A stretch of 64,000 bases of DNA from an uncultured Geobacter sp. (GTDB lineage Bacteria; Desulfobacterota; Desulfuromonadia; Geobacterales; Pseudopelobacteraceae): contig CAYQMO010000002.1 in assembly GCA_964418315.1 (NCBI GenBank), positions 579-64,578 on the forward strand. The letters are read 5' to 3'. Shown piece by piece: positions 1 through 47,947 of this stretch. How positions within the stretch are numbered: position 1 is the stretch's first letter; every line of letters begins with the position of its first letter. The notes beneath the pieces are model-generated. The model saw only the letters and a program-made list of their open reading frames with translations, was not told the DNA's origin and searched no databases. A program made the position numbers and the translations under genes.

Positions 1-1457
1 GCCGTTTGTGCCGCTGCCAGTGTCTTGGTGTCCGTTACCACTGCAGCAGTGGTGCCGTTGTAGACCTTGCTGGTGGGCACTGAAAGGCCGCTCATGGTTA
101 GAGCTTTGGTGGTAATGGTGCCGTTGCTGCCGCTGAGTGAACTGCCTGCGGAGAGGTAATAGTTGGCGGCATCGGTGCTGCCAAGTGTCAGCGAGCCGAT
201 GGTGAAACTCTTGTTGCCGCTGCCGACGTTCTTGGTTGAGAAGTTGCCGTTACCGGAAACGCTGACGACATCATTGCTTTCCAGTCCGGTCAGGCCGAGG
301 CTGACGTTAGTCATGGCGGTCGTGCCGTCATAGACTTTTGTCAGGCCGGTGGCGGTCGCCGTGAGTGCCTTCTGGTTGACGGTAAGCGCGCCAACCACTG
401 TCAGCGTATTACTGAAATTTGCGCTAATCCCGCTGATGTTGCTTGCCGTAATGCTGTAGTTTCCGGCTTTCAGAGCACCATTTGTGCTGGCCTGCGGGCT
501 TTGCGGGGCAAGGGAAAAAACGGCACTGCCTCCGGCACCGTCGCTGTAGGTATAGGTGTTGCCGCTTACCGTAGGTGCCGCCAGCGTTTGAACCACGTTA
601 CTACCGTTCATGTATCTGGCGTTGGCGATGCTGTAGGATGGCGCGGTGCCATATGTGGAGGCGACATTGTTTACTATCACCAGAAGCTGCCCGGCAGGGA
701 CGACGGTATAGTTGCCGCTGGCGTAGCTGATGGAGTAATTGCCGTTGTTGGCGGTAACGCCGGAAGGTGTCAGGGCGTTTGTGTAGGTACCGGCCTGGGT
801 GTTTACGCCGCCAGTATTGCCATCCGGGCCGCTGGCGCTGCGAGTGATGGCGAGGCTGCCCAGGCCAAGTACTGCGGATGTTTCCCCATTGACAAAGCCG
901 TTGTAGCTCACGCCGTTGTAGGCCGCGACTCCGGTCGAGGCCAGGGTGACGAAATTGGCGTCGTTGTTGGCCTTCACCGTGAGCGGTGCGGGGTTTATGG
1001 TGCCGCTGCCGTTGCTCCAGCTCAGTGTGTAGTTGCCGGCATCGGTACCGGCAATGGCCACGGTGCCTACGTTGATTGTCTGTGTGCCCTGGTTGGCGGA
1101 GCTGAACACTGGCGCACCAGACACGGTGACTACATCACTGCCCACAATCCCCACCAGACCGCCATAGCCGTTGCTGTCCACGGGCATGGCGGTTGTGCCA
1201 CTGTAGGTCTTGGTTACTCCAGTGGTGCTACCGGCCAGCGTCAGGGTCTTCTGGCCGATAGTCAGGTTGGCTGGCACATAGGTAATGTTGTAGTTGCCGT
1301 TGGCGGTGTTGGTCATCGTTCCCTGCTGAATCTGATACGTCACGCCGCCTGCGCCGCTGGTCTCGCCGGATGCGCGGGTCAGACTGCCGGTGAGGCTGTC
1401 GCCGCTTAACAAGCCAACCCCCGTGCCCACAGTGCCGGTGGTGTTGGTGTATGTCAG
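1..1457 (-). CDS. Downstream (C-terminal) part of the TpsA-like exoprotein, read in a frame shifted by one nucleotide relative to ORF 1228..6084; open to the window edge
   Basis: Hand translation of the minus strand from 1457 (ctg aca tac acc ...) gives LTYTNTTGTVGTGVGLLSGDSLTGSLTRASGETSGAGGVTYQIQQGTMTNTANGNYNITYVPANLTIGQKTLTL..., followed by KVYDGTTAM / NYxIxY / LTV units with no stop down to position 1. This is the same repeat grammar as the upstream ORF. The ORF-track frame turns into H/R/Q-rich nonsense right after ANYAITFT. Confidence 0.6.
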   Translation of the reverse strand, partial: MTYTNTTGTVGTGVGLLSGDSLTGSLTRASGETSGAGGVTYQIQQGTMTNTANGNYNITYVPANLTIGQKTLTLAGSTTGVTKTYSGTTAMPVDSNGYGGLVGIVGSDVVTVSGAPVFSSANQGTQTINVGTVAIAGTDAGNYTLSWSNGSGTINPAPLTVKANNDANFVTLASTGVAAYNGVSYNGFVNGETSAVLGLGSLAITRSASGPDGNTGGVNTQAGTYTNALTPSGVTANNGNYSISYASGNYTVVPAGQLLVIVNNVASTYGTAPSYSIANARYMNGSNVVQTLAAPTVSGNTYTYSDGAGGSAVFSLAPQSPQASTNGALKAGNYSITASNISGISANFSNTLTVVGALTVNQKALTATATGLTKVYDGTTAMTNVSLGLTGLESNDVVSVSGNGNFSTKNVGSGNKSFTIGSLTLGSTDAANYYLSAGSSLSGSNGTITTKALTMSGLSVPTSKVYNGTTAAVVTDTKTLAAAQT

Positions 1458-4400
1458 TGGTAAAGGTAATGGCGTAGTTGGCTGCCTTGGCCCCCGTTCC
1501 CAGCGCAATGTCGTAGCTACCCACATTGCTGCCGGCTTCGCGACTCAACGTGCCGCTCACATCGGCCATCGCATCGTTCTGCGCCACCGTGGCCAGGCTA
1601 CCGCCGGTTACCGTGACGGCCAGAGTCGGTTCATTCTCGCCGTATACCTTGCTGGCGGCGCTGGCCGTCAGGGTGATGGGGCGCTGGGTAATGCTCAGGT
1701 TGGCAGGCACAAAAGCGATGGCGTAGTTGCTGTTGGCCACCGTGCCTTGCGCAATCGCATAGGGCCCACCCGCGACCGTCTCGCCTGCGGTGCGCGACAG
1801 GCTGCCGGTAAAGGTGTCGGTGCCGACGCGGCCGCGGCCGGTGCCGGCTGCTTCCATGGCGTAGGTCAGGCTGGGATCAGCATTGCCATACACCTTGGTT
1901 TGCGCATCCGCCGTCAGGGTGATCGGGCGCTGGGCAATCGTCAGCGTGCCATCCACATAGGTGTAACTGTAATTACCTGCGGTGTAACCACTGGGGCGGA
2001 TGGTGTAGCTACCGGCATTGACCGCGCCGCTCGACGAGCCGGTGCTGTAGTCCAGTGCGCCAGGTAGGTCTGAGGCGCCTTGCCCCAACACAAAGCCGCT
2101 ATAGGTCACCCCGTTGCCGCCGCCTGGTAAGGCCGCGCCGTCATAGGTCTTGCTCGCGTTGTTGGCGGTGACCGTCAGCGGTGCCCTATCCACCGTCAGA
2201 TTGCCGTTGCTGTAGGTGATGTTGTAGTTGTTGCTGTCGAAGGTGCCACCCGTGGCGGCGGAAGGGGTAATGGTGTAAGTGCCGCGCGCGGCGGTGTCCA
2301 TTGCTCCGCTGCTGCTGAGCGTCACCCCGCCGATGGTGTCAGTGTTCTTCAAGCCGGCTGGGCTAAAGCCGGTAGTGCCCAGGTTCAGCGTGGTGCCGTA
2401 GTTTTTGCTTTGCCCCGTGGCCCCGATGGTGAGCGGTGCGCGGTTCACCGTCAGCGCGCCATTCACATAGGTGATGCTGTAGTTGCTGGCCATAAACGTG
2501 CCGTTGGTGGCATTGCTGGGGACAATGCTGTACGGGCTGCCGCTGACGCCGGCGGTATCAACCGCGCCGCTGCTGGCTAGCGTTAAGCGGCCAATGGTTT
2601 CGCCGTTTTGCAGGCCGGACGACGTGAACAAGTTGGTGTCCGTGGTGTTGCCCATCGTTAGGATGTCGCCATAGGTTTTGCTCTGCGCGCTGGCGGTGAC
2701 GGTGAGCGGTGCCTGCGTCACGGCAAAGTTGGCCGGCACCACGGTTATGGCGTAGTTGCTGTTGGCCAGCGTGCCCACGCTGTTAATGGCGTAGGTGTCA
2801 ACGTCTTCACCGGCCACGCGGGCCAGTGCGCCGATGAAGGTGTCGTTATTGACCCGACCGCGACTACTGCCTGCGGCCTCTACAGCATATGTATATGCCG
2901 GGTTGGCGGCACCGTAGACCTTGGTCTGGCCGCTGTTGACGGTGATGTTGATCGGGCGAGGGCTGACGGTATAACTGCTGTTGGTGCCCCATGTGATGGA
3001 GTAGTCGCTGGCGCTGCCGCTGGTGTAGCCGATGCTCAGCAGAGTGGGGTTGCTTGCGTAGCTGTAGGAACCTGCTGCGGTGGTGCTGGTCAGGAAGCTG
3101 CCGTAGCTGAGCGTCAGGTTGCTGGAGCCAACCAGCGTATACCCTGAGGAAATTGTGCCGCTCGGCGGGGTGTCGCCATAAATGCTGGAAAGAGCGCTGG
3201 TGAAGTTGATAGTGACCGAAGTGGTGCTACTACCCATACGCCAAGGAGTAGCACCAAATGTTAGCGTCGGATAAGCTCCATCGGCACCGGTTATGCTCCA
3301 GCCCGCATTTGTAAATGTGCTCAGGGTTTTCATCTGGGCCGTGGTTTTACCTACTGCCGCACCACCGCTTGTAGCCATACCACTAGTTTGGTTATCCCAG
3401 AAGCTATTTGTAATAGTTCCCCCTGTATAACCTGAAAAGCCACCCTTTCTGGAGGTACTTCCACTACTAACACTTCCGGTTGAATAAGAATTTGAAATAG
3501 TCCCGTTATTTCCAACAAAACCACCGACATAATACCCACCTGTACCACTTCCGGTTGAAGTCGCACTTCCGGTTGAGTAACAATTTGAAATGGTTCCGCC
3601 TTGCCCAGAAAAACCACCAACATATGTGGTAGATGAAGTAACATTTCCAGTTGAATAAGAATTTGAAATGATTCCGCTGCTTTGCCCAACAAAGCCTCCA
3701 GCACTGCTGCCGGTTGCAGTAACACTTCCAGTAGAGTAAGATTTTGAAATGGTTCCAGTGTCATAACCTACAAAACCGCCGGTCATGCTAGCTCCACTAA
3801 CAGTTCCAGTTGAGTAAGAATTTGAAACGGTTCCGCCATTATTACCTACAAATCCGCCGGTATAAGCACCCGTTGCAGTAACTGATCCGGTAGCATAAGC
3901 GTTTGAGATAGTTCCGCTCATATTGTATCCAACCAGCCCGCCGGTTCCGTTAGCTCCCGATACATTAACAGCAGCGTAGGAATCTGAAACGATTGACGAA
4001 CCGGTATTGAGCCCAAGCAATCCTCCGGCACTGTCAGATGCAGTAATACTTCCGCTAGTAATACCTATATTTTTAATAGAGGCTGACGAATTTGTGCGTC
4101 CGAATAGTCCTTGATTATACTCAGTAGGGCGATTGATCGTCAGGTTGCTGACACTATGACCAAGTCCATCAAACTTTTTTGTAAATTGTGTAGCGCTATT
4201 GCCAATTGCTACCCAGTTGGCTATGCTGTTTAAGCTAATATTGCTACCCAAGGCATAGTTGTTTACAGTATCATTAATCATGGCTTGGAAAGAGCTTGCA
4301 TAATTGACAACCCTATAAGTCACAAGTGCGCCGTCACTTCCAAGTTTGGTGCTAAATCTTTCGCCCTCAAGAAGATTGATTTGACCTGTAAAGTTATTGC

Positions 4401-6084
4401 CGGTGTTGTTATTCAAAGTTCCGGTTAATCCAAAGTTATAAGTCGCCGTATTCCCAGCCGCAACAGCGCCTTGACCATAGTATAATGATACATTGCCGTT
4501 TGTGGCCGTGATATTGGCATTGATCGCGATGTTTCTATAGGCGCTAAGTGTTAAGCTGTAAGCGGATGTCCAGCTAATAGCAGAAGAGACTGTGATGTCA
4601 CCATCTGTGCCACTTTCACCACTTGTAGTGCTTGGTGTATTACCTCCATTGGTCGTGATAGTTACATTACCAGTTCCCAAAGCTGTCCCTATTGTGCTAG
4701 CCAGCGTACTGTCTATCGTGATATTGACAGGGTCGATGAGCCACTTTTTTGCTTTGACCTGCGCGCCTTCTTGGATAGTGAAGTGCTCGCCGGAAGTCTC
4801 GACCCAGCCGCCGTCGCCACCTTCTGCACCGCCTTTTGAGAGGATTTCGCCACCCACCGTGGTGATTGAGTTGGCGTTGTGGATATCCGACCAGAGCACA
4901 GCAGTACCACCATTGCCGATCTGCGTTGCACTGACGTCTATCTTCGCCCCCTGTTCCATGGTGACAGTGGTTGCCTGGTGCATGGTGCCGCTCCCCTGCC
5001 AGCCGCCGCCCACCAGCACCGTGCCGCCGCCGGTTTTGCCGGTAGCATCAAGCAGACTGCCGCTGGCAAGGGTGATATGATCGCCGGAAAGAGTGATGGT
5101 GCCACCTTTTACCCCATCCCCACCCCGACCCTCCCCTTGAAGGGGAGGGAGTATTTGTGTGAGAGTTGACTTGCCTGAGACATCCAGCGTGCCACTATTG
5201 GTGACATTGCCCCCTTCAATGACGATCTCGCCATTGCGCTCCACCATGCTGCGGGCGCGAACCTTGCCGCTGTTGTTGACAACCGTAGCCAGTAGGGCAT
5301 CAGCAGCCGAAGCAGTCATTACCACCGTGCCGCCGTCAGCCTCAATTACGCCGCTGTTGGTCACCTGGGCGTTATATGCCGCTTTATCTACCTTGATCGC
5401 CATCAGGCCATTGGGATCAAAACCGAGAGTAATCTCATCACCCGCAGCCAACCCTGTCGTCCCCTTGGTAGTAACAATGGTTCCGGCGTTCTCGACTGAA
5501 TTACCAAGCAGCGCCACAAAACCGCCAGAGACATTCCCCTGATTGACCACCGAACCGCCTGCTCCATCTTTAAAGAACGAATATTTCCCCGCCAGGAAAT
5601 CACTGTCCTTTATGCTGAGGCTGGACGCCACCAGACCGCCGACATTGACGCTGGCACCGGGAGCAAAGAGGATGCCGGAGGGGTTGGTCAAAAAGACCCG
5701 GCCATTTGCTGTCAACGAGCCGAAGATGTTGGAGGGGTTATTTCCCAGCACCCGGTTTAGCAGAGTTGACTGGCTGGAAGGCTGTGCGATGTTGACCGCC
5801 TCACCTTTGCCAATGCCGAAGGAATTCCAGTTAATAATCGCCTGGTTTGTTCCCTGGGTGATGTTCATCTGGTTAGTGGCCGGCGTGCTGATGGCAGCCT
5901 GTCCGGCGGCAACCTGTCCGCCTGATGGCAGCGCAAACGCACCGCTTGCGGCCATAATCAGCGAAGTCACAACGGCAGCGGCAACGGTAATCGGCGACGG
6001 CCCGCCGTTGCCTTTGATAATCTCGGCGGCGACAACCCAGCGTTCTTTTGCTTTGCTCCAGATCAGGCGGTATGCTTTATTCAT
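1228..6084 (-). CDS. Two-partner-secretion (TpsA) filamentous-hemagglutinin-family exoprotein: ESPR signal, TPS domain, beta-helix repeats, GLUG-type repeats, MBG-type repeats. The last ~76 codons of this ORF are probably out of frame.
   Basis: The N-terminus MNKAYRLIWSKAKERWVVAAE is an extended signal peptide region. NQAIINWNSFGIGKGEAVNIAQPSSQSTLLNRVLGNNPSNIFGSLTANGRVFLTNPSGILF is a TPS/haemagglutination-activity domain. Then come G/T/S-rich repeats, GGxVGxNxGTISNSYSTGSV repeats, and repeated ...KxYG/YDG...NYxIxY..G.LTV units. Confidence 0.9.
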   Translation of the reverse strand: MNKAYRLIWSKAKERWVVAAEIIKGNGGPSPITVAAAVVTSLIMAASGAFALPSGGQVAAGQAAISTPATNQMNITQGTNQAIINWNSFGIGKGEAVNIAQPSSQSTLLNRVLGNNPSNIFGSLTANGRVFLTNPSGILFAPGASVNVGGLVASSLSIKDSDFLAGKYSFFKDGAGGSVVNQGNVSGGFVALLGNSVENAGTIVTTKGTTGLAAGDEITLGFDPNGLMAIKVDKAAYNAQVTNSGVIEADGGTVVMTASAADALLATVVNNSGKVRARSMVERNGEIVIEGGNVTNSGTLDVSGKSTLTQILPPLQGEGRGGDGVKGGTITLSGDHITLASGSLLDATGKTGGGTVLVGGGWQGSGTMHQATTVTMEQGAKIDVSATQIGNGGTAVLWSDIHNANSITTVGGEILSKGGAEGGDGGWVETSGEHFTIQEGAQVKAKKWLIDPVNITIDSTLASTIGTALGTGNVTITTNGGNTPSTTSGESGTDGDITVSSAISWTSAYSLTLSAYRNIAINANITATNGNVSLYYGQGAVAAGNTATYNFGLTGTLNNNTGNNFTGQINLLEGERFSTKLGSDGALVTYRVVNYASSFQAMINDTVNNYALGSNISLNSIANWVAIGNSATQFTKKFDGLGHSVSNLTINRPTEYNQGLFGRTNSSASIKNIGITSGSITASDSAGGLLGLNTGSSIVSDSYAAVNVSGANGTGGLVGYNMSGTISNAYATGSVTATGAYTGGFVGNNGGTVSNSYSTGTVSGASMTGGFVGYDTGTISKSYSTGSVTATGSSAGGFVGQSSGIISNSYSTGNVTSSTTYVGGFSGQGGTISNCYSTGSATSTGSGTGGYYVGGFVGNNGTISNSYSTGSVSSGSTSRKGGFSGYTGGTITNSFWDNQTSGMATSGGAAVGKTTAQMKTLSTFTNAGWSITGADGAYPTLTFGATPWRMGSSTTSVTINFTSALSSIYGDTPPSGTISSGYTLVGSSNLTLSYGSFLTSTTAAGSYSYASNPTLLSIGYTSGSASDYSITWGTNSSYTVSPRPINITVNSGQTKVYGAANPAYTYAVEAAGSSRGRVNNDTFIGALARVAGEDVDTYAINSVGTLANSNYAITVVPANFAVTQAPLTVTASAQSKTYGDILTMGNTTDTNLFTSSGLQNGETIGRLTLASSGAVDTAGVSGSPYSIVPSNATNGTFMASNYSITYVNGALTVNRAPLTIGATGQSKNYGTTLNLGTTGFSPAGLKNTDTIGGVTLSSSGAMDTAARGTYTITPSAATGGTFDSNNYNITYSNGNLTVDRAPLTVTANNASKTYDGAALPGGGNGVTYSGFVLGQGASDLPGALDYSTGSSSGAVNAGSYTIRPSGYTAGNYSYTYVDGTLTIAQRPITLTADAQTKVYGNADPSLTYAMEAAGTGRGRVGTDTFTGSLSRTAGETVAGGPYAIAQGTVANSNYAIAFVPANLSITQRPITLTASAASKVYGENEPTLAVTVTGGSLATVAQNDAMADVSGTLSREAGSNVGSYDIALGTGAKAANYAITFTTDIHQHHRHCGHGGWLVKRRQPHRQSDPRIRRDQRRRRRDVSDSAGNDDQHRQRQLQHYLCASQPDYRPEDPDAGR
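3395..4045 (-). repeat. About 9-10 tandem GLUG-type coding repeats (GGFVGxxxGTISNSYSTGSVT) inside the exoprotein gene
   Basis: The translated segment SDSAGGLLGLNTGSSIVSDSYAAVNVSGANGTGGLVGYNMSGTISNAYATGSVTATGAYTGGFVGNNGGTVSNSYSTGTVSG...GGFSGYTGGTITNSFWDNQTSG has a period of roughly 22-25 aa. Confidence 0.75.
5111..5150. repeat. Family-A palindromic element (C-rich tail + CCCTCCCCTT-G-AAGGGGAGGG hairpin), in frame inside the exoprotein CDS
   Basis: ACCCCATCCCCACCCCGACCCTCCCCTTGAAGGGGAGGGA is 40/40 identical to the reverse complement of 46417-46456. Here it is translated as ILPPLQGEGRGGDGV. Confidence 0.85.
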
Positions 6085-6124: not shown

Positions 6125-6152
6125 GTAGGGGCAAAAGATTTTCTGCCCCTAC
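6125..6152. repeat. Family-B palindromic element GTAGGGGCAAAAGATTTTCTGCCCCTAC in the leader region of the exoprotein gene
   Basis: Two perfect 9-bp arms (GTAGGGGCA / TGCCCCTAC) flank a 10-nt loop. A related copy lies at 7945-7987. Confidence 0.8.
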
Positions 6153-7712: not shown

Positions 7713-7798
7713 CACTAATATATGTAATACAAAGGATTACGTTACTACTCGCCAACACTTTCTGTCTGGTAATAGTTGGGCAAATAATTTTTCCCCCC

Positions 7799-9172
7799 CT
7801 ACGATATCCCGTATCTCCGCATTTTTTCCTTGAAGGCGTTATAACTGATCCCTAGCAGTTCCGCCGCCTGCATTTTTTTGCCGCCGGTGGTGTGAATGGC
7901 TCTTTCGATGGCCCACCGCTCCAGATCCGATAATTTGCACGATTGTAGGGGCAAAAAATCTTTTGCACCTACGTCTTTTGCCCCTACGGAACCCACGGCG
8001 TCAACGCCACTCGCTCTTACTTCTGCGGCGGTGATAATATCTCCGGCCTGAAAAAGCAGCCGTCGCAGGCGCTGCTTGAGCTCGCGAAAATTACCCGGCC
8101 ACTGCTCCGCCTGTAAAAGCTGGAGCGCTTCAGGAGTCAGCATGGGAGAGTTGCGACCCAGATCATCTGCCGCCTGGGCGATGAAATTGCTACAGAATTC
8201 AGGTATATCCTCACTCCTGTCACGCAGCGGCGGTATGTTCAGGACAACATCGCTCAAACGCAGCCAGAGGCTGCCACTGAAACGCCCCTGCAGAGCCTCT
8301 TCGCCCAGATCAGCCGTGGTAAGGGCTATAACTCGTACATCGCACTCTATCGATTCGATCCCCGCTGCCGGAGAATAGCTTCCGCTCTCCAACAGACTCA
8401 ATATTCGCTCCTGCAAAGAGACCGGAAGCAGCTCCGGTGATTTCAGCGCCAGCGTGCCACCATTAATTTCCTTCAGGATTCCACTGTCCCGATGCGGAGA
8501 GGGGCGACCACGTCCTGGCGTTCTGCCGAACAAATCAAGCTCAAGTTGCTCGGCGCTGCGACTGCGGCACTCTATGGTGTGCAGACGTTTTTTCTTTCGT
8601 CTGCTCATACTGTGCAGCAGCTCAGCAACCATCCCCTTGCCTGTCCCGTTTTCTCCACGCACAACGACTGCATAATCGCTCTCAGCCGCTCTGGTGATCT
8701 GTTCCCTGAGAGCCAGCATGGCGGGACTGTTGCCGCTCAAAAGGCCGTTTGTCTTTATCGCCTCGGATTTGAGGCGCTGAATCTCCCTCCGCTGAAGAAT
8801 CGGCAAAACCGCACGATTGACAGCATCCAGCATCCGAGCCGTATCAATCGGTTTTGGTATGTAGGCAGCGACCCCCAGTTCTATCGCTCGCAGCAGATAG
8901 GCGGTATCTGTGAAAGCTGTGCAGAGGATGACCGGGACATCCGGAAAGTTACGCTTTAACTCGGCGGTAAGCTCAAGGCCGTCCATGATCGGCATCCGAA
9001 TATCGCTTATAACTACATCGGGACGGTTTATTTTGAAAAGTTCAAGCGCCTCTCTTCCGTTGATGGCGGTCAGGACATTTTCAAAATGCAGGGTGAGAGC
9101 AAAGGCGACATGTTCGCGAAGTTCGGGCTCGTCTTCGACATAAAGGATCGTAAGGTTCGATGTTTCAGGCAA
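7799..9172 (-). CDS. NtrC-family response regulator (receiver + AAA+ + Fis-type HTH) with degenerate ATPase and sigma-54-contact motifs
   Basis: The receiver domain reads ILYVEDEPELRE...DVVISDIRMPIMDG. Walker A is GENGTGKG; WPGNFREL and PLRDRSEDI are present; the C-terminal HTH is AAELLGISYNAFKEKMRRYGI. A likely TTG start at 9172 overlaps the kinase stop. The ORF-track start at 9247 would overlap the kinase gene by 83 nt. Confidence 0.85.
   Translation of the reverse strand: MPETSNLTILYVEDEPELREHVAFALTLHFENVLTAINGREALELFKINRPDVVISDIRMPIMDGLELTAELKRNFPDVPVILCTAFTDTAYLLRAIELGVAAYIPKPIDTARMLDAVNRAVLPILQRREIQRLKSEAIKTNGLLSGNSPAMLALREQITRAAESDYAVVVRGENGTGKGMVAELLHSMSRRKKKRLHTIECRSRSAEQLELDLFGRTPGRGRPSPHRDSGILKEINGGTLALKSPELLPVSLQERILSLLESGSYSPAAGIESIECDVRVIALTTADLGEEALQGRFSGSLWLRLSDVVLNIPPLRDRSEDIPEFCSNFIAQAADDLGRNSPMLTPEALQLLQAEQWPGNFRELKQRLRRLLFQAGDIITAAEVRASGVDAVGSVGAKDVGAKDFLPLQSCKLSDLERWAIERAIHTTGGKKMQAAELLGISYNAFKEKMRRYGIS
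7945..7987. repeat. Family-B palindromic element (1.5 units), in frame inside the response-regulator CDS
   Basis: GTAGGGGCAAAAAATCTTTTGCACCTAC-GTC-TTTTGCCCCTAC is translated on the minus strand as VGSVGAKDVGAKDFLPLQ, between the AAA+ and HTH domains. Confidence 0.8.
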
Positions 9173-11927
9173 TTGGCAACTCGATTCTGAAGACAGTCTC
9201 TCCCGGTCTGCTCGTAAAGGTGAGCGTTCCACCCATGCTCTCCTCAATTATCTGTCTGGACATGTAGAGTCCGACACCGGTTCCCTGACTTTCCTCTTTA
9301 GTGGTAAAATATGGTTCAAAAACCCTGGACGCAGCTTCTGGCGGAATGCCGCAACCGCTGTCCGTAATTTCGATGACGAGGCAACCCCCTTTGACCAGCG
9401 AGGATATCGCGACACGGCTTGTTTCATCGCCGTTTGCGCTCCGCTTGTCAAGTATGGCGTCTCTGGCGTTGGCAAGAAGATTCAGGATCACCTGTGAGAA
9501 TTCATTTGGAAAGCCATTAATAATGCTATTCGTATCAATATCTTCAGCCATTGTAACTGTGATGCCGAGTGATTTGAATTGACCATCAATGAACCCCAGC
9601 GCTTCTTCTATTTTCTTCAGGACTTTGAAGTTTTCTTTATTTTTTTCCGGTTTGAAAAAATTCCTGAAGGAGTCAATTGTTTTGGACATATGGGTTATCA
9701 GTGCGGTAGCATCAGTCGCTGCCTTCTCCAGATACGCTTCGTCAAGTTTATTCATCTTGCGAGCTGCAAGCAGGTTTTGAAAAATGACGCTGACTGTTGA
9801 GAGCGGCTGACGCCACTGGTGGGCGATGGCGCCTATCATCTCTCCCATGGCCGCCATTTTGGTGCTTTGGGTAAGCAGACCTTCATTGGCTATACGACGA
9901 TTTGTTTCTTCTTCGACTCTTTGCATGAGTGTTTCGTTCAGAATTTTCAACTCCGACTCCATTACCTTGTCTCTGGTAATATCCTGGGTTGTGCCATAGA
10001 CTTTGACGACTTTCCCCTGAGTGTCAACAAGCGTTTTGCCGGTTCCGCGATGCCAGACTATCCGGCCATCGGGTAGCATAACCCTGCCGTCGTGCTGCCA
10101 GCCTGTTCCCTCTTCGAGAGCACGGCGAAAATACTGCTCCACTTTCGGCGCGTCATCAGGATGAAAAAACGGCATAACCTCTGAAATATGGAGAGATCCG
10201 GAGCCGGGCTCCAGACCAAGCAACTTGTACATCTGATCCGAATAGCCGAGCATGCCGGTCTCCGGATCAAAGTCCCAGTCTCCAATTTTTGCAACGGCCT
10301 GTGCTTCACGCAGTCGAAGATCGTTTTTCCGTAAAGCGGTTTCAGACCGTGTATGTTCTTCGCGTCGCCTGGCCTCGTTGGAAAGGAGCAGCGCCAGAAG
10401 AAGCGTAAAAAGCAAAATGGTCACTGAAGTTATAACCAGCCAGCTCATCCGCTCGCGAATGCCATGCCCTAATTCATGATTTGAGAAGCCGGTCACCATG
10501 ACCAGCGGCAGTTCGCCGATTTTTTTGAAAACATAGATCCGGCGGATAGAATCCACCTTGCTGGTGTTTTCATATAAGCCTGATGGCCGTTTCTGCAACA
10601 TCTCCCAGATTGGCGAATCAACCGGCTGCGACCAGCGGTCAGGAGATGGATCCGGTATGCGTGCTCGTAACTTTCTATCATCAGTACTGAGCAAGGAAGC
10701 GATATTGTGGGTTCCGGTCATCAGCCTGCCATAATAACGGGTAAAGGCTTCCGGGTTTACCGCCGCAAGCACGATGCCTCCGAAACTGCTATCAGGATTG
10801 CTGATACGATGAGTAATACGGAAGTGGTGTTTGCCTGTGACACGACCTGGCTCAACCGACGCGATAAACATCCGGTCAATGGAATTTGATCGATGGAAGG
10901 TAAAGTAATCCCGGTCTGATACACTGCGCCCGATTGCTTTCGGATCGTGCGCTATAACAATTCTGCCATCAGCCGCTATCAGGTAGATATTATCTATAAC
11001 CGATCGGTCAAAGCCGAGATTATAGATAAATGTTTCAGTTTCGCGAAGAGAACGGGTTCTCTTGTAAAAGTTTCGCACAGCGTTCAGGCTTGTTTCAACC
11101 TGACCGGTGATCTGGATTGTATGCTCTACAAAGGCGTCATTCGCCAGCTCGGTAGCGCGGATCATCCGCTCTTTTTCGCTATCCCTTATGTTGAGATAAC
11201 CGATGCCTAGCATGCTGGCAACGCCTACGATCAAAACCGTAACTGCACTCCAGAGCAGTAGCAGCTTATTACGAAAATAGTCTACAAAAACGGATAATCT
11301 TCCTGCATTTTGATCGATCTCGACCGACCTTTCTTTAAGACGGTTGGCCTCCATCCACATCACACATACAGTCATCAACGACATTAAGATGATGTAGCCG
11401 AACACCGTTATCCAACTGGTCGGGTTTGCGCCACGTAGTTCTGGCGGCGGCGGAGTAGAGAGTAACAGCACAGTAAAACGTACCGTCATCCAGGCAGTGA
11501 GTACAGAAAACAGGGCTGCCATAACTCTGGTAGGAATATCAAATCTCTGTTGCACTGCATTACGCCCAAACAGTAAAGCCGTAGGAAAATTAATGGCGGC
11601 AGCAGCCAGGGAAAACACCATACTTCGATAAATGCCATTCGGCTCAATCAGCCCCCAGTAGCAAAAAGCCGGCACCGTGAGCGCTACAATTACCCATCCC
11701 CACAAGTTCGGCGTACTGTGGCGTCTCTTGAAAAAGGCAGAAAAACCTGAATAAATGATTGGACCAGAAGAAAGCAGAGCAACATTTGTTCCGACAACAG
11801 TTGCCCATACCGGCAGAGTCGGGCCAATACCTGATACGAAGAAGCCGATAGAAAGCAGCAAAACAGAAAGAACCCAATTGCGGATTACAAGCGTACCAGG
11901 CTGGAAACGGACAAAAACCAGCAGCAC
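9165..11927 (-). CDS. Membrane sensor histidine kinase (multi-TM N-terminus, periplasmic Cache-like region, PAS, HisKA, HATPase_c)
   Basis: The first ~200 aa contain several hydrophobic helices. A PAS-like segment reads DWDFDPETGMLGYSDQMYKLLG. The H-box is IAHQWRQPLS, and the G-boxes include DSGCGIP...GTGVGLYMSRQI. Confidence 0.9.
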   Translation of the reverse strand: MLLVFVRFQPGTLVIRNWVLSVLLLSIGFFVSGIGPTLPVWATVVGTNVALLSSGPIIYSGFSAFFKRRHSTPNLWGWVIVALTVPAFCYWGLIEPNGIYRSMVFSLAAAAINFPTALLFGRNAVQQRFDIPTRVMAALFSVLTAWMTVRFTVLLLSTPPPPELRGANPTSWITVFGYIILMSLMTVCVMWMEANRLKERSVEIDQNAGRLSVFVDYFRNKLLLLWSAVTVLIVGVASMLGIGYLNIRDSEKERMIRATELANDAFVEHTIQITGQVETSLNAVRNFYKRTRSLRETETFIYNLGFDRSVIDNIYLIAADGRIVIAHDPKAIGRSVSDRDYFTFHRSNSIDRMFIASVEPGRVTGKHHFRITHRISNPDSSFGGIVLAAVNPEAFTRYYGRLMTGTHNIASLLSTDDRKLRARIPDPSPDRWSQPVDSPIWEMLQKRPSGLYENTSKVDSIRRIYVFKKIGELPLVMVTGFSNHELGHGIRERMSWLVITSVTILLFTLLLALLLSNEARRREEHTRSETALRKNDLRLREAQAVAKIGDWDFDPETGMLGYSDQMYKLLGLEPGSGSLHISEVMPFFHPDDAPKVEQYFRRALEEGTGWQHDGRVMLPDGRIVWHRGTGKTLVDTQGKVVKVYGTTQDITRDKVMESELKILNETLMQRVEEETNRRIANEGLLTQSTKMAAMGEMIGAIAHQWRQPLSTVSVIFQNLLAARKMNKLDEAYLEKAATDATALITHMSKTIDSFRNFFKPEKNKENFKVLKKIEEALGFIDGQFKSLGITVTMAEDIDTNSIINGFPNEFSQVILNLLANARDAILDKRSANGDETSRVAISSLVKGGCLVIEITDSGCGIPPEAASRVFEPYFTTKEESQGTGVGLYMSRQIIEESMGGTLTFTSRPGETVFRIELPIA

Positions 11928-44666: not shown

Positions 44667-44685
44667 AAACAAACCAAAGTCAAAG

Positions 44686-44760
44686 GCAACCCCAACCCCT
44701 CCCAACCTCCCCTTATCAGGGGAGGAGCAAGACTAAAGTCCGGGGGGCTAGGGGGGTTGC
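44686..44760. repeat. Family-A element doublet (MITE-like unit with termini GCAACCCC ... GGGGTTGC) in the hsdR/hsdMS spacer
   Basis: GCAACCCCAACCCCTCCCAACC-TCCCCTTATCAGGGGA-GG ... CCGGGGGGCTAGGGGGGTTGC, that is, tail + hairpin followed by an inverted tail. Confidence 0.7.
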
Positions 44761-44774
44761 TTTTAAGGAATTTC

Positions 44775-47696
44775 ATGCTCTCCAAAGAGACAAAAAAGAA
44801 AATAGATGATGCTCGCGATATTTTGGTGGGGCAACTGCCACTACCGTCTGATCAGGTCGAACTGATAACCATCGCTCTGATTTACAAGTTCATGGATGAT
44901 CAGGATGAGGATCTTCGTCAGCTTGATTTTGCGGAAGCGTTTTTCTCCGGTGATCTGAAACAATATTCATGGCAGCGCTTGATGAGTAATGAAATCGATG
45001 CCGATGAACGGGTGAATGTATTCACCAAAGGGATTGAGGAAATTCAGAAGGCAGCGCACATTCCTCTCCTGTTCCGTGAAATATTCAAAAACACTTTTCT
45101 CAAATTTCGCGATGGCCGTACCCTGCACCTTTTTCTCGGAGTCATCAACGGCTTCAGCTATGATCACAGTGAAGAGCTGGGCAACGCCTTTGAATATCTG
45201 CTGATGAGCATGGGGGCACAGGGGGAGAACGGTCAGTTTCGCACACCACGCAACATCATCGACTTCATTGTTGAGGTGGTCGATCCGGACAAGGGTGACA
45301 CTATCCTCGACCCGGCCTGCGGTACCGGCGGCTTTCTCCTCTCTGCATATAAGCACATTCTGCGGAAATACACGACCGACCGTGAACATTACCGGATAAC
45401 GCTTAACAACGAAGAAATCGAAGGAATACCGGTCAACTGGGGTGACAAGCTAACTACCCAGGATCTGAAACAGTTAGGCGTCAGCATTGAGGGATATGAC
45501 ATCACCCCGCAGATGACGCGGCTTGCCAAAGTAAATCTCTATCTGCACCAGTTCAAAAGCCCCCGCATTCACGAATACGACACCCTTACGTCAGAAGGTC
45601 GCTGGAAGGATAAGTACGACTGCATCCTAGCCAATCCGCCGTTTATGACGCCAAAGGGTGGTGTCTCGACTCACTCCAAATTCCGTATCCGCGCCACCAA
45701 GGCGGAAGTGCTCTTTTCTGATTACATCCTGGAACACCTCACCCCCGATGGCATGGCCGGTTTCATCGTGCCGGAAGGGATCATTTTTCAGAACAGTGAT
45801 GATTATGTGGAACTGCGCAAATGGCTGGTAAATGGTGCCGGTCTTTGGGCGGTGGTATCTCTGCCAGCCCAGATTTTCCAGCCTTACTCGGGTGTTAAGA
45901 CTTCGATCCTGTTCATTGATCGCAAGATAGCGCGAAGCCGGGATGAGATTATTCTCGTCAAGGTGGAAAGCGATGGTTATACCCTCAACACCAACCGCGT
46001 ACCGACAGCCAGGAACGATTTGCCAGAGGCGTTAAATCTTCTGACTATCGGGAAAAAGAGTCTGGATGAGTTGCGTGATTATCTGGAGAAGAACGGTGGC
46101 AAGCAGGATATGCCCAAGGCATTGATCAAACCACGTAGCGAGTTTGCCCGATTGGATGCCTACAAAGCGCAGAGCGCGGCGTTCAGCCTGATTCGCAAGC
46201 AGCATGAAAAGTGTCTGGCGGTGGAAGAGGAAATTCAACTTCTACCCCATCCCCTCCCTAACCCTCCCCTTGAAGGGGAGGGGACAAAAAACCTTCCTCC
46301 GGCTGAGAAGAAGAAAGCTGATGAAGTGGAGAAGAAGCGAGTTCGACTTAAGGCCGCTTTGACTAAACAAATCGCAGAATTTTTCAAGATAGCCGGAACT
46401 GCCTACAACAAAATCCTCCCTCCCCTTCAAGGGGAGGGTCGGGGTGGGGATGGGGTGATTGCCCTTCAGTCATACTTTGATAACAACTTGAAAGAGGCTG
46501 TCATTGCTTATGGTGCAGATGGCACAAAGGTCGGTGATCTCACTCCGCACCTGCGCGACTATCTGGACGGGTTGCGGGAATATAGTTTGAGTTTTGATAA
46601 ATATGCTGGAGGGAATGGGCCAACAGTGCACGCTATACACGAGATGGTATTGCTTGGTGACGTTTGTTCTTTTGAATATGGCAAACCCCTGAAAGAAGAA
46701 AATCGTATAAATGGAGAGTTTCCGGTTTATGGTTCAAACGGAATTGTTGGTTATCACAACGAATTTTTAGTAGAAGCACCATTTCTCGTTGTTGGTAGAA
46801 AGGGAAGTGCCGGTTCTGTCCATTATTCTGAGAAGAGCGGCTTTCCGATCGATACAACGTTTTTTGTCAAACTTGCGCAGGAAGATAAAATACTGTTGAA
46901 GTACCTTTATCCATTGCTTCAAAAGCTGAGTCTGAAAGACCTTAACACTCAAGCGGGAGTTCCCGGACTTAACAGGAATGACGCTTATCAACTTCAAATC
47001 CCACTTCCTTCCCTCGAAATCCAGAAGCAGATTGTCGCAGAAATTGAGACGTACCAGAAGGTTGTAGACGGCTGCAATCTGATTATTGAGAACTACAAGC
47101 CAGAAATACAGATAAATTCTGAGTGGCCTATGGATGAGCTTGATAGTCTGTGTGACATTGTAAGAGGAAGCTCTCCAAGGCCGCAGGGTGACCCTAAACT
47201 TTTCGGTGGACCAGTTCCAAGACTGATGATTGCAGATATAACACGTGATGGGATGAGGGTTACGCCTAAAATTGATTCATTGACCGATCTTGGTGCAACG
47301 AAAAGTCGCCCAATGGATTCTGGTAGCGTCGTTATGGCGGTTAGCGGCAATCCTGGCCTGCCAGCAATCCTAAAAGTTAATGCATGCATCCATGACGGTT
47401 TTGTTGGATTCAGGCAGTTAGATACATCTCAAATCATACACGAATTTCTTTACTATGTCCTTCTTGACAAAAAAGACGAACACGGTTCACAGTCTGTAGG
47501 TTCTGTATTTAAAAACCTGACAACTGACCAAATTCGAGCAATCAAAATCCCCCTCCCTCCACTCGAAACCCAGCAAAAAATAGTCGCTGAACTTGAGCAA
47601 GAAATGTCTGCCGTGGCAGGTGCCAAGCGCCTGAAAGCCAAGATGGAAGCCCGTATCCGCACCACCATCAGCAGGGTGTGGGGAGAGAAGGCATGA
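44775..47696 (+). CDS. Fused Type I-like methyltransferase-specificity protein (HsdM N-terminal ~470 aa + two-TRD HsdS C-terminal ~350 aa)
   Basis: The MTase part has FRTPRNIIDFIVEVV, DPACGTGGFL (motif I) and LANPPFMTPKGG (motif IV). The S part has two variable TRDs, each followed by a conserved helix: IPLPSLEIQKQIVAEIETYQKVVD and IPLPPLETQQKIVAELEQEMSAV. ATG at 44775 has an AAGGAA Shine-Dalgarno sequence. Confidence 0.85.
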   Translation: MLSKETKKKIDDARDILVGQLPLPSDQVELITIALIYKFMDDQDEDLRQLDFAEAFFSGDLKQYSWQRLMSNEIDADERVNVFTKGIEEIQKAAHIPLLFREIFKNTFLKFRDGRTLHLFLGVINGFSYDHSEELGNAFEYLLMSMGAQGENGQFRTPRNIIDFIVEVVDPDKGDTILDPACGTGGFLLSAYKHILRKYTTDREHYRITLNNEEIEGIPVNWGDKLTTQDLKQLGVSIEGYDITPQMTRLAKVNLYLHQFKSPRIHEYDTLTSEGRWKDKYDCILANPPFMTPKGGVSTHSKFRIRATKAEVLFSDYILEHLTPDGMAGFIVPEGIIFQNSDDYVELRKWLVNGAGLWAVVSLPAQIFQPYSGVKTSILFIDRKIARSRDEIILVKVESDGYTLNTNRVPTARNDLPEALNLLTIGKKSLDELRDYLEKNGGKQDMPKALIKPRSEFARLDAYKAQSAAFSLIRKQHEKCLAVEEEIQLLPHPLPNPPLEGEGTKNLPPAEKKKADEVEKKRVRLKAALTKQIAEFFKIAGTAYNKILPPLQGEGRGGDGVIALQSYFDNNLKEAVIAYGADGTKVGDLTPHLRDYLDGLREYSLSFDKYAGGNGPTVHAIHEMVLLGDVCSFEYGKPLKEENRINGEFPVYGSNGIVGYHNEFLVEAPFLVVGRKGSAGSVHYSEKSGFPIDTTFFVKLAQEDKILLKYLYPLLQKLSLKDLNTQAGVPGLNRNDAYQLQIPLPSLEIQKQIVAEIETYQKVVDGCNLIIENYKPEIQINSEWPMDELDSLCDIVRGSSPRPQGDPKLFGGPVPRLMIADITRDGMRVTPKIDSLTDLGATKSRPMDSGSVVMAVSGNPGLPAILKVNACIHDGFVGFRQLDTSQIIHEFLYYVLLDKKDEHGSQSVGSVFKNLTTDQIRAIKIPLPPLETQQKIVAELEQEMSAVAGAKRLKAKMEARIRTTISRVWGEKA
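46244..46283. repeat. Family-A palindromic element, forward orientation, in frame in the M-S linker
   Basis: ACCCCATCCCCTCCCTAACCCTCCCCTTGAAGGGGAGGGG is translated as LPHPLPNPPLEGEG. It matches the reverse complement of 46417-46456 at 36 of 40 positions. Confidence 0.85.
46417..46456. repeat. Family-A palindromic element, reverse orientation, in frame in the M-S linker
   Basis: TCCCTCCCCTTCAAGGGGAGGGTCGGGGTGGGGATGGGGT is translated as ILPPLQGEGRGGDGV. Its reverse complement is identical to 5111-5150. Confidence 0.85.
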
Positions 47697-47947
47697 GTCA
47701 AAATCAACGTCAAAACCAACCCCCCTCAGTCCCCCCTTATCAGGGGGGAGGCTTTTTAGCTCCCTCCCCTGATAAGGGGAGGGTCGGGGAGGGGTTTGCT
47801 TTTGACTCTGGTTCTGACTCTACCTTCCTCCCTTACAGCAAAAACCTCACCGCTCTTGCCCGTGAAAACCGCTGTAACCCTACAAAAGCCGAAAGCAAAA
47901 TCTGGCGCGAAGATCTTATGCTTCGGCTTATGCAGGTGACATCCTGA
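47693..47947 (+). CDS. 84-aa micro-ORF: repeat-derived N-terminus plus only the N-terminal helix of a DUF559-type (Vsr-like endonuclease) protein; possibly a gene remnant
   Basis: The start overlaps the hsdMS stop (ATGA) and the stop overlaps the darT start (TGATG). LPYSKNLTALARENRCNPTKAESKIWRE matches the usual DUF559 leader (LPYN..L...AR.LR.N.T.AE..LW..L). No nuclease core follows. Confidence 0.4.
   Translation: MSQNQRQNQPPSVPPYQGGGFLAPSPDKGRVGEGFAFDSGSDSTFLPYSKNLTALARENRCNPTKAESKIWREDLMLRLMQVTS
47713..47798. repeat. Head-to-head doublet of family-A-like elements downstream of hsdMS
   Basis: AAAACCAACCCCCCTCAG-TCCCCCCTTATCAGGGGGGA (47713-47751) and CTCCCTCCCCTGATAAGGGGAGGG-TCGGGGAGGGGTTTG (47760-47798). 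The outer tails are mutually inverted. Confidence 0.7.

Follow-up and report, generated by a model that had tools for sequence, protein, structure and literature searches.

Predicted intrastrand-triplex repeats of the BoxC/PIT/TM class occur in frame within protein-coding genes of an uncultured Geobacter

BoxC/PIT/TM repeats (Bergler 1992; Hoyne 2000; Holder et al. 2015, PMC4666352) combine a pyrimidine arm, a short loop, a purine arm, a 3-nt loop and a mirror-ordered G-rich segment in about 37–40 nt, and occur as many dispersed copies on both strands, often as inverted pairs, with variable copy number and no known mobility gene. TM motifs number thousands of copies across 262 proteobacterial genomes, differ widely in copy number between relatives and have no mobility genes nearby; in Escherichia coli they follow the TMECO pattern (CCCTCNCCC N3-6 GGGNGAGGG N3 GGGNGAGGG), and those of strain K-12 are strictly intergenic (Holder et al. 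2015, PMC4666352). Rickettsia palindromic elements (RPEs; Ogata et al. 2000; reviewed in PMC10969869) are selfish palindromes that lie in frame and in both orientations in unrelated genes, housekeeping genes included, are translated as surface segments and have no known transposase. Here we describe an element that resembles the former in structure and the latter in behaviour. It is a 40-mer found in two unrelated genes, for a TpsA-type exoprotein and a fused type I methylase/specificity protein (HsdMS), of a 64,000-nt stretch of an uncultured Geobacter sp. (GenBank assembly GCA_964418315.1, contig CAYQMO010000002.1, positions 579 to 64,578; the window). With a probability of roughly 0.8, the 40-mer is a unit of a dispersed, copy-number-variable, selfish BoxC/PIT/TM repeat that has repeatedly entered genes and is tolerated there in frame. 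Throughout, C denotes contigs of the window's own genome (a coordinate on C2 minus 578 gives the window position), G related genomes, L loci from other genomes and P homologous proteins.

An initial reading of the window from its sequence alone (the sequence-only reading) had reported that positions 5111–5150 match the reverse complement of 46417–46456 at 40 of 40 bases and are read in the same element frame, as the same peptide, in both hosts. Direct comparison upheld both points, with 45 of 46 bases identical over the longer span of 5111–5156 against the reverse complement of 46411–46456, and with ILPPLQGEGRGGDGV as the translation of both copies in two long open reading frames (ORFs). The first copy (5111–5151, minus strand, G-rich strand coding, read LPPLQGEGRGGDGV) lies in the exoprotein gene (1228–6084, minus strand; a 1,618-codon ORF with Pfam domains ESPR, TPS, Glug and MBG_2) in the context ...GKSTLTQILPPLQGEGRGGDGVKGGTITLSGD. 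The second forms a 39-nt, 13-codon in-frame insert (46419–46457, plus strand, G-rich strand coding) at the second of two linker sites in hsdMS (44775–47696, plus strand, ORF from 44757; Pfam N6_Mtase and Methylase_S), in the context ...YNKILPPLQGEGRGGDGVIALQ. Such identity between unrelated genes is due to recent copying of one subfamily, not to a common gene function. The related copies listed by the sequence-only reading are all present, being recovered by a triplex finder at 44695–44726, 46250–46283, 47719–47750 and 47761–47795. The first is the core of a 93-nt full element (44672–44764, no strand assigned) in the spacer between the helicase/R gene and hsdMS, laid out as C-tail, hairpin, spacer and G-tail with the ends GCAACCCC...GGGGTTGC; the second belongs to a 51-nt in-frame insert at hsdMS linker site 1 (46244–46294, minus strand, C-rich strand coding, read PHPLPNPPLEGEGTKN); and the last two form an inverted pair (47719–47795, no strand assigned) immediately 3' of the hsdMS stop codon.

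The structure of the unit places it in the BoxC/PIT/TM class of intrastrand triplex motifs, a class II purine motif. On the G-rich strand it reads CCCTCCCCTT-C-AAGGGGAGGG-TCG-GGGTGGGGAT-GGGGT, in which a pyrimidine arm (CCCTCCCCTT) and a purine arm (AAGGGGAGGG), separated by a 1-nt loop, pair as a hairpin with a calculated DNA fold energy of −10.4 kcal/mol (z-score −2.3 to −2.8); three instances of this hairpin pattern are present in the window, whereas shuffles predict 0.01. After the 3-nt loop TCG, the G-rich third segment (GGGTGGGGAT) mirrors the purine arm, with T or A opposite A, and all 10 of the 10 triads are allowed purine-motif triads when the sequence is read against the TMECO pattern. 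Third strands matching only in mirror order outnumber those matching only in direct order by 14 to 2, a modest support given that G-runs fit both ways after a 1-nt shift. Subfamilies with asymmetric purine arms are more informative: GGGGAAGG is followed by GGATGGGG, and AAAGGGGGA by AGGGGGATTT, the third segment in each case repeating the arm in mirror order. In the genome as a whole, the 58 motifs that the triplex finder recovered (8-nt stems, at most one mismatch per segment) fall into at least six subfamilies, and in at least five subfamilies the purine arm and the third strand have changed jointly and in mirror order. The 40-mer copy departs from the literal TMECO pattern (one mismatch allowed) at about 3–4 positions and has a first loop of 1 nt, whereas exact TMECO matches occur elsewhere, at C120:8766–8799 in the same genome, in frame in a polyketide synthase (PKS) gene, and at locus L212. 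On these sequence features the 40-mer is one unit of a predicted intrastrand-triplex repeat of the BoxC/PIT/TM class, in a subfamily other than that of E. coli. The hairpin-plus-tail element that had first been noticed is thus real, but it is no new kind of repeat (Holder et al. 2015, PMC4666352). Searching the entire window against Rfam at gathering thresholds gave no match, so no RNA family described there covers the element.

Where the repeats lie sets them apart from their E. coli counterparts. Across the window's 4.4-Mb, 512-contig genome, the triplex finder returned 58 motifs, against none in a shuffled genome, and 22 of these (38%) were deep intragenic, that is, with an open frame of at least 100 codons on both sides, random positions giving 43%. 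None of the 58 lay between two long frames of different phase, as a motif splitting a gene would. For the subfamily of the 40-mer (subfamily A; 22 copies in the genome), 14 copies were deep intragenic, a further one had 510 and 97 codons on its two sides, and 4 lay at contig ends. Hence, whereas E. coli motifs are described as always intergenic, 38% of the motifs here, and at least 64% of those of the 40-mer subfamily, lie inside genes in frame. The deep-intragenic motifs occupy 17 host genes, several of them essential. By Pfam these encode HsdMS, the TpsA exoprotein, MurG, CobB/CbiA, a DUF255 thioredoxin-like protein, a histidine kinase (C105), a hybrid histidine kinase (C85), HypF, UvrA, Mfd, RNase R, a second HsdM-like methylase, two non-ribosomal peptide synthetases (NRPS) and a PKS (C125); a further PKS (C120) was recognized by homology to L084 only, and UvrB by alignment with 23 orthologues.

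The copies within genes also keep to particular reading frames. Five of the six frames of the element lack a stop codon (the C-rich strand contains a TGA in one of its frames, the sole stop), so the frame common to the exoprotein and HsdMS is by itself weak evidence, and it is the genome-wide bias that carries the point. All 14 deep-intragenic subfamily-A copies use a single frame per orientation: the 10 read on the G-rich strand all give PP[LFI/H]QGEGRGGDG and the 4 read on the C-rich strand all give PHPxPNxPxEGEG, while the remaining three open frames (SLPFKGRVGVGMG, PSPSRGGSGWGWG and PIPTPTLPLKGR) are used by none of the 14. The probability of this outcome is about 10^-6 if open frames are equally likely, and somewhat less extreme once duplicated NRPS and PKS contexts are allowed for. 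The preferred frames are the most hydrophilic ones (G-rich strand, PPLQGEGRGGDG; C-rich strand, PHPxPNPPLEGEG), and the bias probably reflects selection for the most soluble encoded peptide. Ten more in-frame cases were found in Pfam-confirmed proteins of other genomes (an AcrB-type pump, HrpB, two MmeI-type enzymes, an aminotransferase, an acyl-CoA dehydrogenase, a PKS, a UvrD-like helicase, DnaE2 and PriA). The sequence-only reading had named, as the outcome that would speak against it, intragenic copies that are frame-random and confined to disrupted genes; the tabulation gave the opposite, with 22 of the 58 motifs in long intact ORFs, biased frames and no split genes. Not every in-gene copy is an insertion of its own; some have spread as part of a longer duplicated segment, since an NRPS gene (C3:45998–46109) and a PKS gene (C125:10048–10160) share nearly the same repeat pair together with its flanks (RN[AS]LDFPPPFQGEGRGGDGVDC...PHPxPxLPLEG).

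Comparison with orthologues identifies the window's copies as insertions. Both in-gene hsdMS copies are absent from the closest homologue (P0004, 91% identical), and DNA alignment with its locus, L120, delimits a 39-nt insert at site 2 (exact), a 51-nt insert at site 1 and the 93-nt full element in the upstream spacer. The full element is missing from both L120 and L122, whose spacers measure 15 nt. The site 1 insert is likewise missing from L120 and L122, and L211 and L212 hold other triplex-repeat types there, so that three different repeat types occupy this site across the window, L211 and L212. The site 2 insert is absent from L120, and L122 carries an unrelated two-unit repeat no more than 6 nt from the site. 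We also considered a single composite insertion comprising the two hsdMS copies and the 135 nt between them, and rejected it because repeat-less orthologues keep the intervening segment. In the exoprotein, the insert had been said to interrupt otherwise family-typical sequence, and indeed the segment is absent from the closest homologue (P0123) and from the same-genus orthologue (G005), relative to which the window's gene is a net 18 codons (~54 nt) longer, including extra bases on the hairpin side to about position 5172; the corresponding turn in L213 carries a TMECO-like remnant. A MurG orthologue without the insert exists as well, so that aligning orthologues, as the sequence-only reading had suggested, yields empty sites for hsdMS, the exoprotein, UvrB and MurG.

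Two sequences at the hsdMS sites bear on how repeats may be lost. At site 2, L214 has what appears to be an in-frame internal deletion of the L122 two-unit repeat, joined between two GGAGGGG arms; judged from this alignment, it looks like an example of repeat decay through recombination between hairpin arms. The 'uninserted' site 1 of L120 itself looks, from its sequence, like a decayed hairpin unit.

In the host proteins, the inserts fall at positions that a fold could tolerate. In a structural model of UvrB built with 24 sequences (predicted local distance difference test score (pLDDT) 80.9, predicted template modelling score (pTM) 0.76), the insert at residues 429–465 has pLDDT below 50 and no secondary structure and lies between a strand and a helix, both well predicted; in this good model, it is a predicted disordered loop, structure prediction being the check that the sequence-only reading had proposed for whether the inserts fall in surface loops. 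In MurG the extra segment separates the two glycosyltransferase domains, and the Pseudomonas aeruginosa enzyme of known structure lacks it. The exoprotein insert lies in a turn just past the TPS domain, a turn whose length varies among homologues, the solved EtpA included. In HsdMS the conserved M part is followed by the repeats and then by the variable S part. The repeats probably persist in genes because each 39-nt unit (the basic unit, 13 codons) adds whole codons, because five of the six frames lack a stop, and because the surviving copies lie in linkers or surface turns and use the most hydrophilic frame, so that the host protein would gain no more than a floppy Pro/Gly loop.

Homologous positions have thus received repeats repeatedly, and the clearest case is uvrB. 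Its variable codon site, between VRPVTA and GQVDDL (C28:7456–7560 in the window's genome; loci L215–L234), was compared in 20 same-genus genomes: 9 are empty and 11 carry at least five different repeat configurations (two-unit elements of two kinds, a pair joined tail to tail, one 39-nt unit on its own and decayed copies), always in frame and with all 20 of the 20 genes intact. A tree of the uvrB sequence that flanks the site contains sister pairs with strong support whose insert states are not the same: the window's genome and G012 carry two different element types (support 100/100), G006 has a single unit where G031 is empty (support 99/99; net +39 nt), and G009 has an intact and G010 a decayed insert (support 100/99). 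The empty site of G031 (GCGGGA|ATTTCC) matches exactly the flanks of the 105-nt insert in the window's genome. Either this is one of few permissive sites or repeats and their remnants draw further copies; new copies may arrive preferentially at or beside older repeat remnants.

Such hypervariability within one genus would also fit repeats kept for the benefit of the host, as recombination or instability hotspots that shuffle modules or as hypervariable surface loops. Holder et al. (PMC4666352) tie the motifs to local genome rearrangement in E. coli; the hosts here are rich in modular, fast-evolving genes (restriction-modification, TpsA, NRPS and PKS), and the hsdMS repeats separate a conserved part from a variable one. 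Many hosts, however, are single-copy housekeeping enzymes for which modular variation would bring nothing (MurG, UvrA, UvrB, Mfd, RNase R, CobB and HypF), 9 of the 20 congeners do without a uvrB insert, and decayed copies are common, all of which makes a retained host function unlikely in comparison with selfish repeats tolerated in frame.

Beyond this genome, 30 relatives (18 of the same genus) have between 0 and 32 copies of the subfamily each, and more than 119 loci contain near-exact 38-mers. These loci come from Betaproteobacteria, Geobacter/Desulfuromonadales, Syntrophia and Nitrospirota, and isolate genomes are among their sources (Noviherbaspirillum and Undibacterium among the Betaproteobacteria). 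In those loci the units are often arranged as a C-tail, one or more hairpins and a G-tail, or as two units tail to tail. [quoted passage not shown] REP/REPIN-RAYT repeats and in-frame MITEs (for example, Coxiella QMITE, PMC5896051) do share with our repeats that they are short hairpins, sometimes paired, non-autonomous and occasionally within ORFs. But no consistent target-site duplication was found in three clean empty/filled pairs (from the hsdMS region and uvrB), no transposase-bearing parent element was seen despite the complementary tails, the repeats lack the GTAG/CGTC tag, and the eight Y1_Tnp genes all lie away from triplex repeats (15 kb from one in a single case, and on contigs without any in the other seven), so that no RAYT association is evident; Holder et al. 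(PMC4666352) likewise saw no mobility genes near the E. coli copies. We therefore consider transposition of this kind quite improbable for these repeats. At two junctions, the empty site has 4–8 nt in common with the element's flank or end (AAATACTC at hsdMS site 2, GGGA|ATTT at uvrB); two cases are too few for us to claim microhomology-primed copying.

A candidate copying machinery, compatible with the selfish-repeat reading as a mechanism within it, is a DUF559 (Vsr-like) nuclease, which would cut at or near repeat-like sites, with repair then copying a repeat from elsewhere. The gene is present in 6 of 119 other-genome loci, in all six at 1–342 nt from a repeat and in four within 51 nt; the sole intact gene of the window's genome, on C168, lies 42 nt from a repeat and is embedded in repeats; and in relatives several of the genes are bracketed by subfamily-A copies (G011:C3, G021:C14 and G023:C74). 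Gene number and repeat number are correlated across genomes (Spearman 0.57, P = 9 × 10^-4, uncorrected for phylogeny), and the repeated overwriting of the uvrB site is in keeping with such an activity. Adjacency alone, however, would also be seen if the nuclease were a passenger, and there are discordant genomes: G028 has four genes and no subfamily-A copies, G000 has one gene and 24 copies, and G002 has no DUF559 match yet carries a repeat pair in uvrB. The nuclease is accordingly put forward as a tentative possibility. A fuller version is somewhat more doubtful: a transposase-free mobile system, driven by DUF559, that would be adapted to genes through its 13-codon unit, five open frames and one benign frame per orientation, and that would overwrite the same codon site in essential proteins time after time, giving hypervariable loops like that of uvrB in this genus. 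At L107:7120–7999 an array of repeat units runs straight into an intact DUF559 gene, and a six-frame reading fuses the two into a spurious ORF. In the window, a stretch at 47828–47946 (plus strand) resembles the N-terminal leader of DUF559 nucleases (LPYSKNLTALARENRCNPTKAESKIW; a weak pairwise E-value of 2 × 10^-4 over 26 residues), which, with no Pfam match even at E = 10, is a hint at most.

Several observations weigh against the reading of these repeats as selfish elements tolerated in genes. Translation of the inserts would follow from intact frames, Pfam matches and orthologue alignments, and the deep-intragenic class was defined from open frames rather than gene calls. The description 'mobile' rests on comparison alone, as no transposase, consistent target-site duplication or insertion signature was found. 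The HsdMS AlphaFold model is poor overall (pLDDT 60.6, pTM 0.34), but the positions of the two inserts match its two low-confidence gaps, each of which is bordered by confident helices. Four of the ten cases from other genomes are read in less hydrophilic frames, in real genes, so the frame rule is a strong bias and not a law or a mechanical necessity. Finally, in a 512-contig metagenome-assembled genome, under-assembled intergenic copies may inflate the intragenic fraction. Four subfamily-A copies do lie within about 50 nt of contig ends (C163, C169, C26 and C89), which points to breaks in the assembly at repeat clusters and to too low a count of intergenic copies. Fragmentation and the copies at contig ends could also raise the suspicion that the in-gene copies themselves are artefacts of metagenome assembly or binning; yet each of the in-gene copies is flanked on either side by a long open frame, independent assemblies from other studies contain comparable inserts (in MurG of L066 and in a PKS of L084), and the comparison of 20 same-genus genomes reveals related inserts at the uvrB site, which makes this explanation extremely improbable. 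Insert/empty pairs, intact frames, biased frames, a disordered loop in the UvrB model and rapid turnover at uvrB were all observed, and they support the RPE-like reading of the in-gene repeats that had been proposed from the sequence.

The window has other features besides the triplex repeats. A second, unrelated palindromic family (GTAGGGGCAAAAGATTTTCTGCCCCTAC), GTAG-tagged like REP, occurs at 6125–6152, 7774–7803 and 7945–7972, with one copy in the exoprotein leader, the copy at 7774–7803 at the edge of an ORF at 7799–9247 (minus strand) and that at 7945–7972 inside it. Three tandem copies with a 135-nt period lie at 58913–59343 (161-nt aligned unit, 76–82% identity). The exoprotein ORF ends in an H/R/Q-rich tail (1228–1526), and a second minus-strand frame (3–1526) continues its repeat grammar, which suggests a 1-nt frameshift or assembly error near 1459–1526, unrelated to the triplex repeat.

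Set beside the described systems, the repeats match RPEs in behaviour only: they lie in frame, in both orientations, in unrelated and intact genes, at positions that a fold would tolerate. They are set apart by length, base composition and host range, RPEs being about 100–150 bp, AT-rich and restricted to Rickettsia, and the present units being 39 nt, G/C-rich, of triplex type and spread over several phyla. The repeat catalogue of Geobacter bemidjiensis (Aklujkar et al. 2009, PMC2700814; 2010, PMC2996986) includes a 'palindromic sequence' family (Gbem_R2xxx) whose consensus is of the same repeat class and close to the two-unit insert in L122, although the triplex-type entries consulted are listed there as intergenic. 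The same papers describe another Geobacter family inside genes 'without causing frameshifts', which differs in consensus and uses all reading frames, whereas one frame per orientation dominates here. The sequence-only reading had held that such in-frame colonization is rarely annotated outside Rickettsia: the same RPE-like behaviour is indeed found here, but in-frame repeats are already documented in Geobacter (PMC2996986, PMC2700814) and as Coxiella MITEs (PMC5896051). No publication that treats triplex-type repeats as translated inserts came to light; the class of repeat and its in-frame behaviour are each known, and it is the two together that we did not find in print. New here are the genome-wide count, the fixed reading frame, the essential hosts, the disordered-loop model and the uvrB allele series.

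For annotation, the inserts cause spurious low-complexity PPLQGEGRGGDG matches between unrelated proteins and give false N- or C-terminal extensions, and the gaps that they open in alignments should not be taken for domain boundaries. BoxC/PIT/TM repeats have been recognized since the 1990s and in hundreds of genomes, E. coli being the only one studied closely, and to our knowledge neither their function nor their route of spreading is known. The class now gains a further property, as its members are probably translated within many proteins, enzymes of the cell wall and of DNA repair among them, with quick turnover at a fixed site. The uvrB and hsdMS loci provide natural series of insert and empty alleles for studying how the repeats move, and the repeats as a whole would constitute a second, phylogenetically broad case of the 'selfish DNA in proteins' described from Rickettsia.

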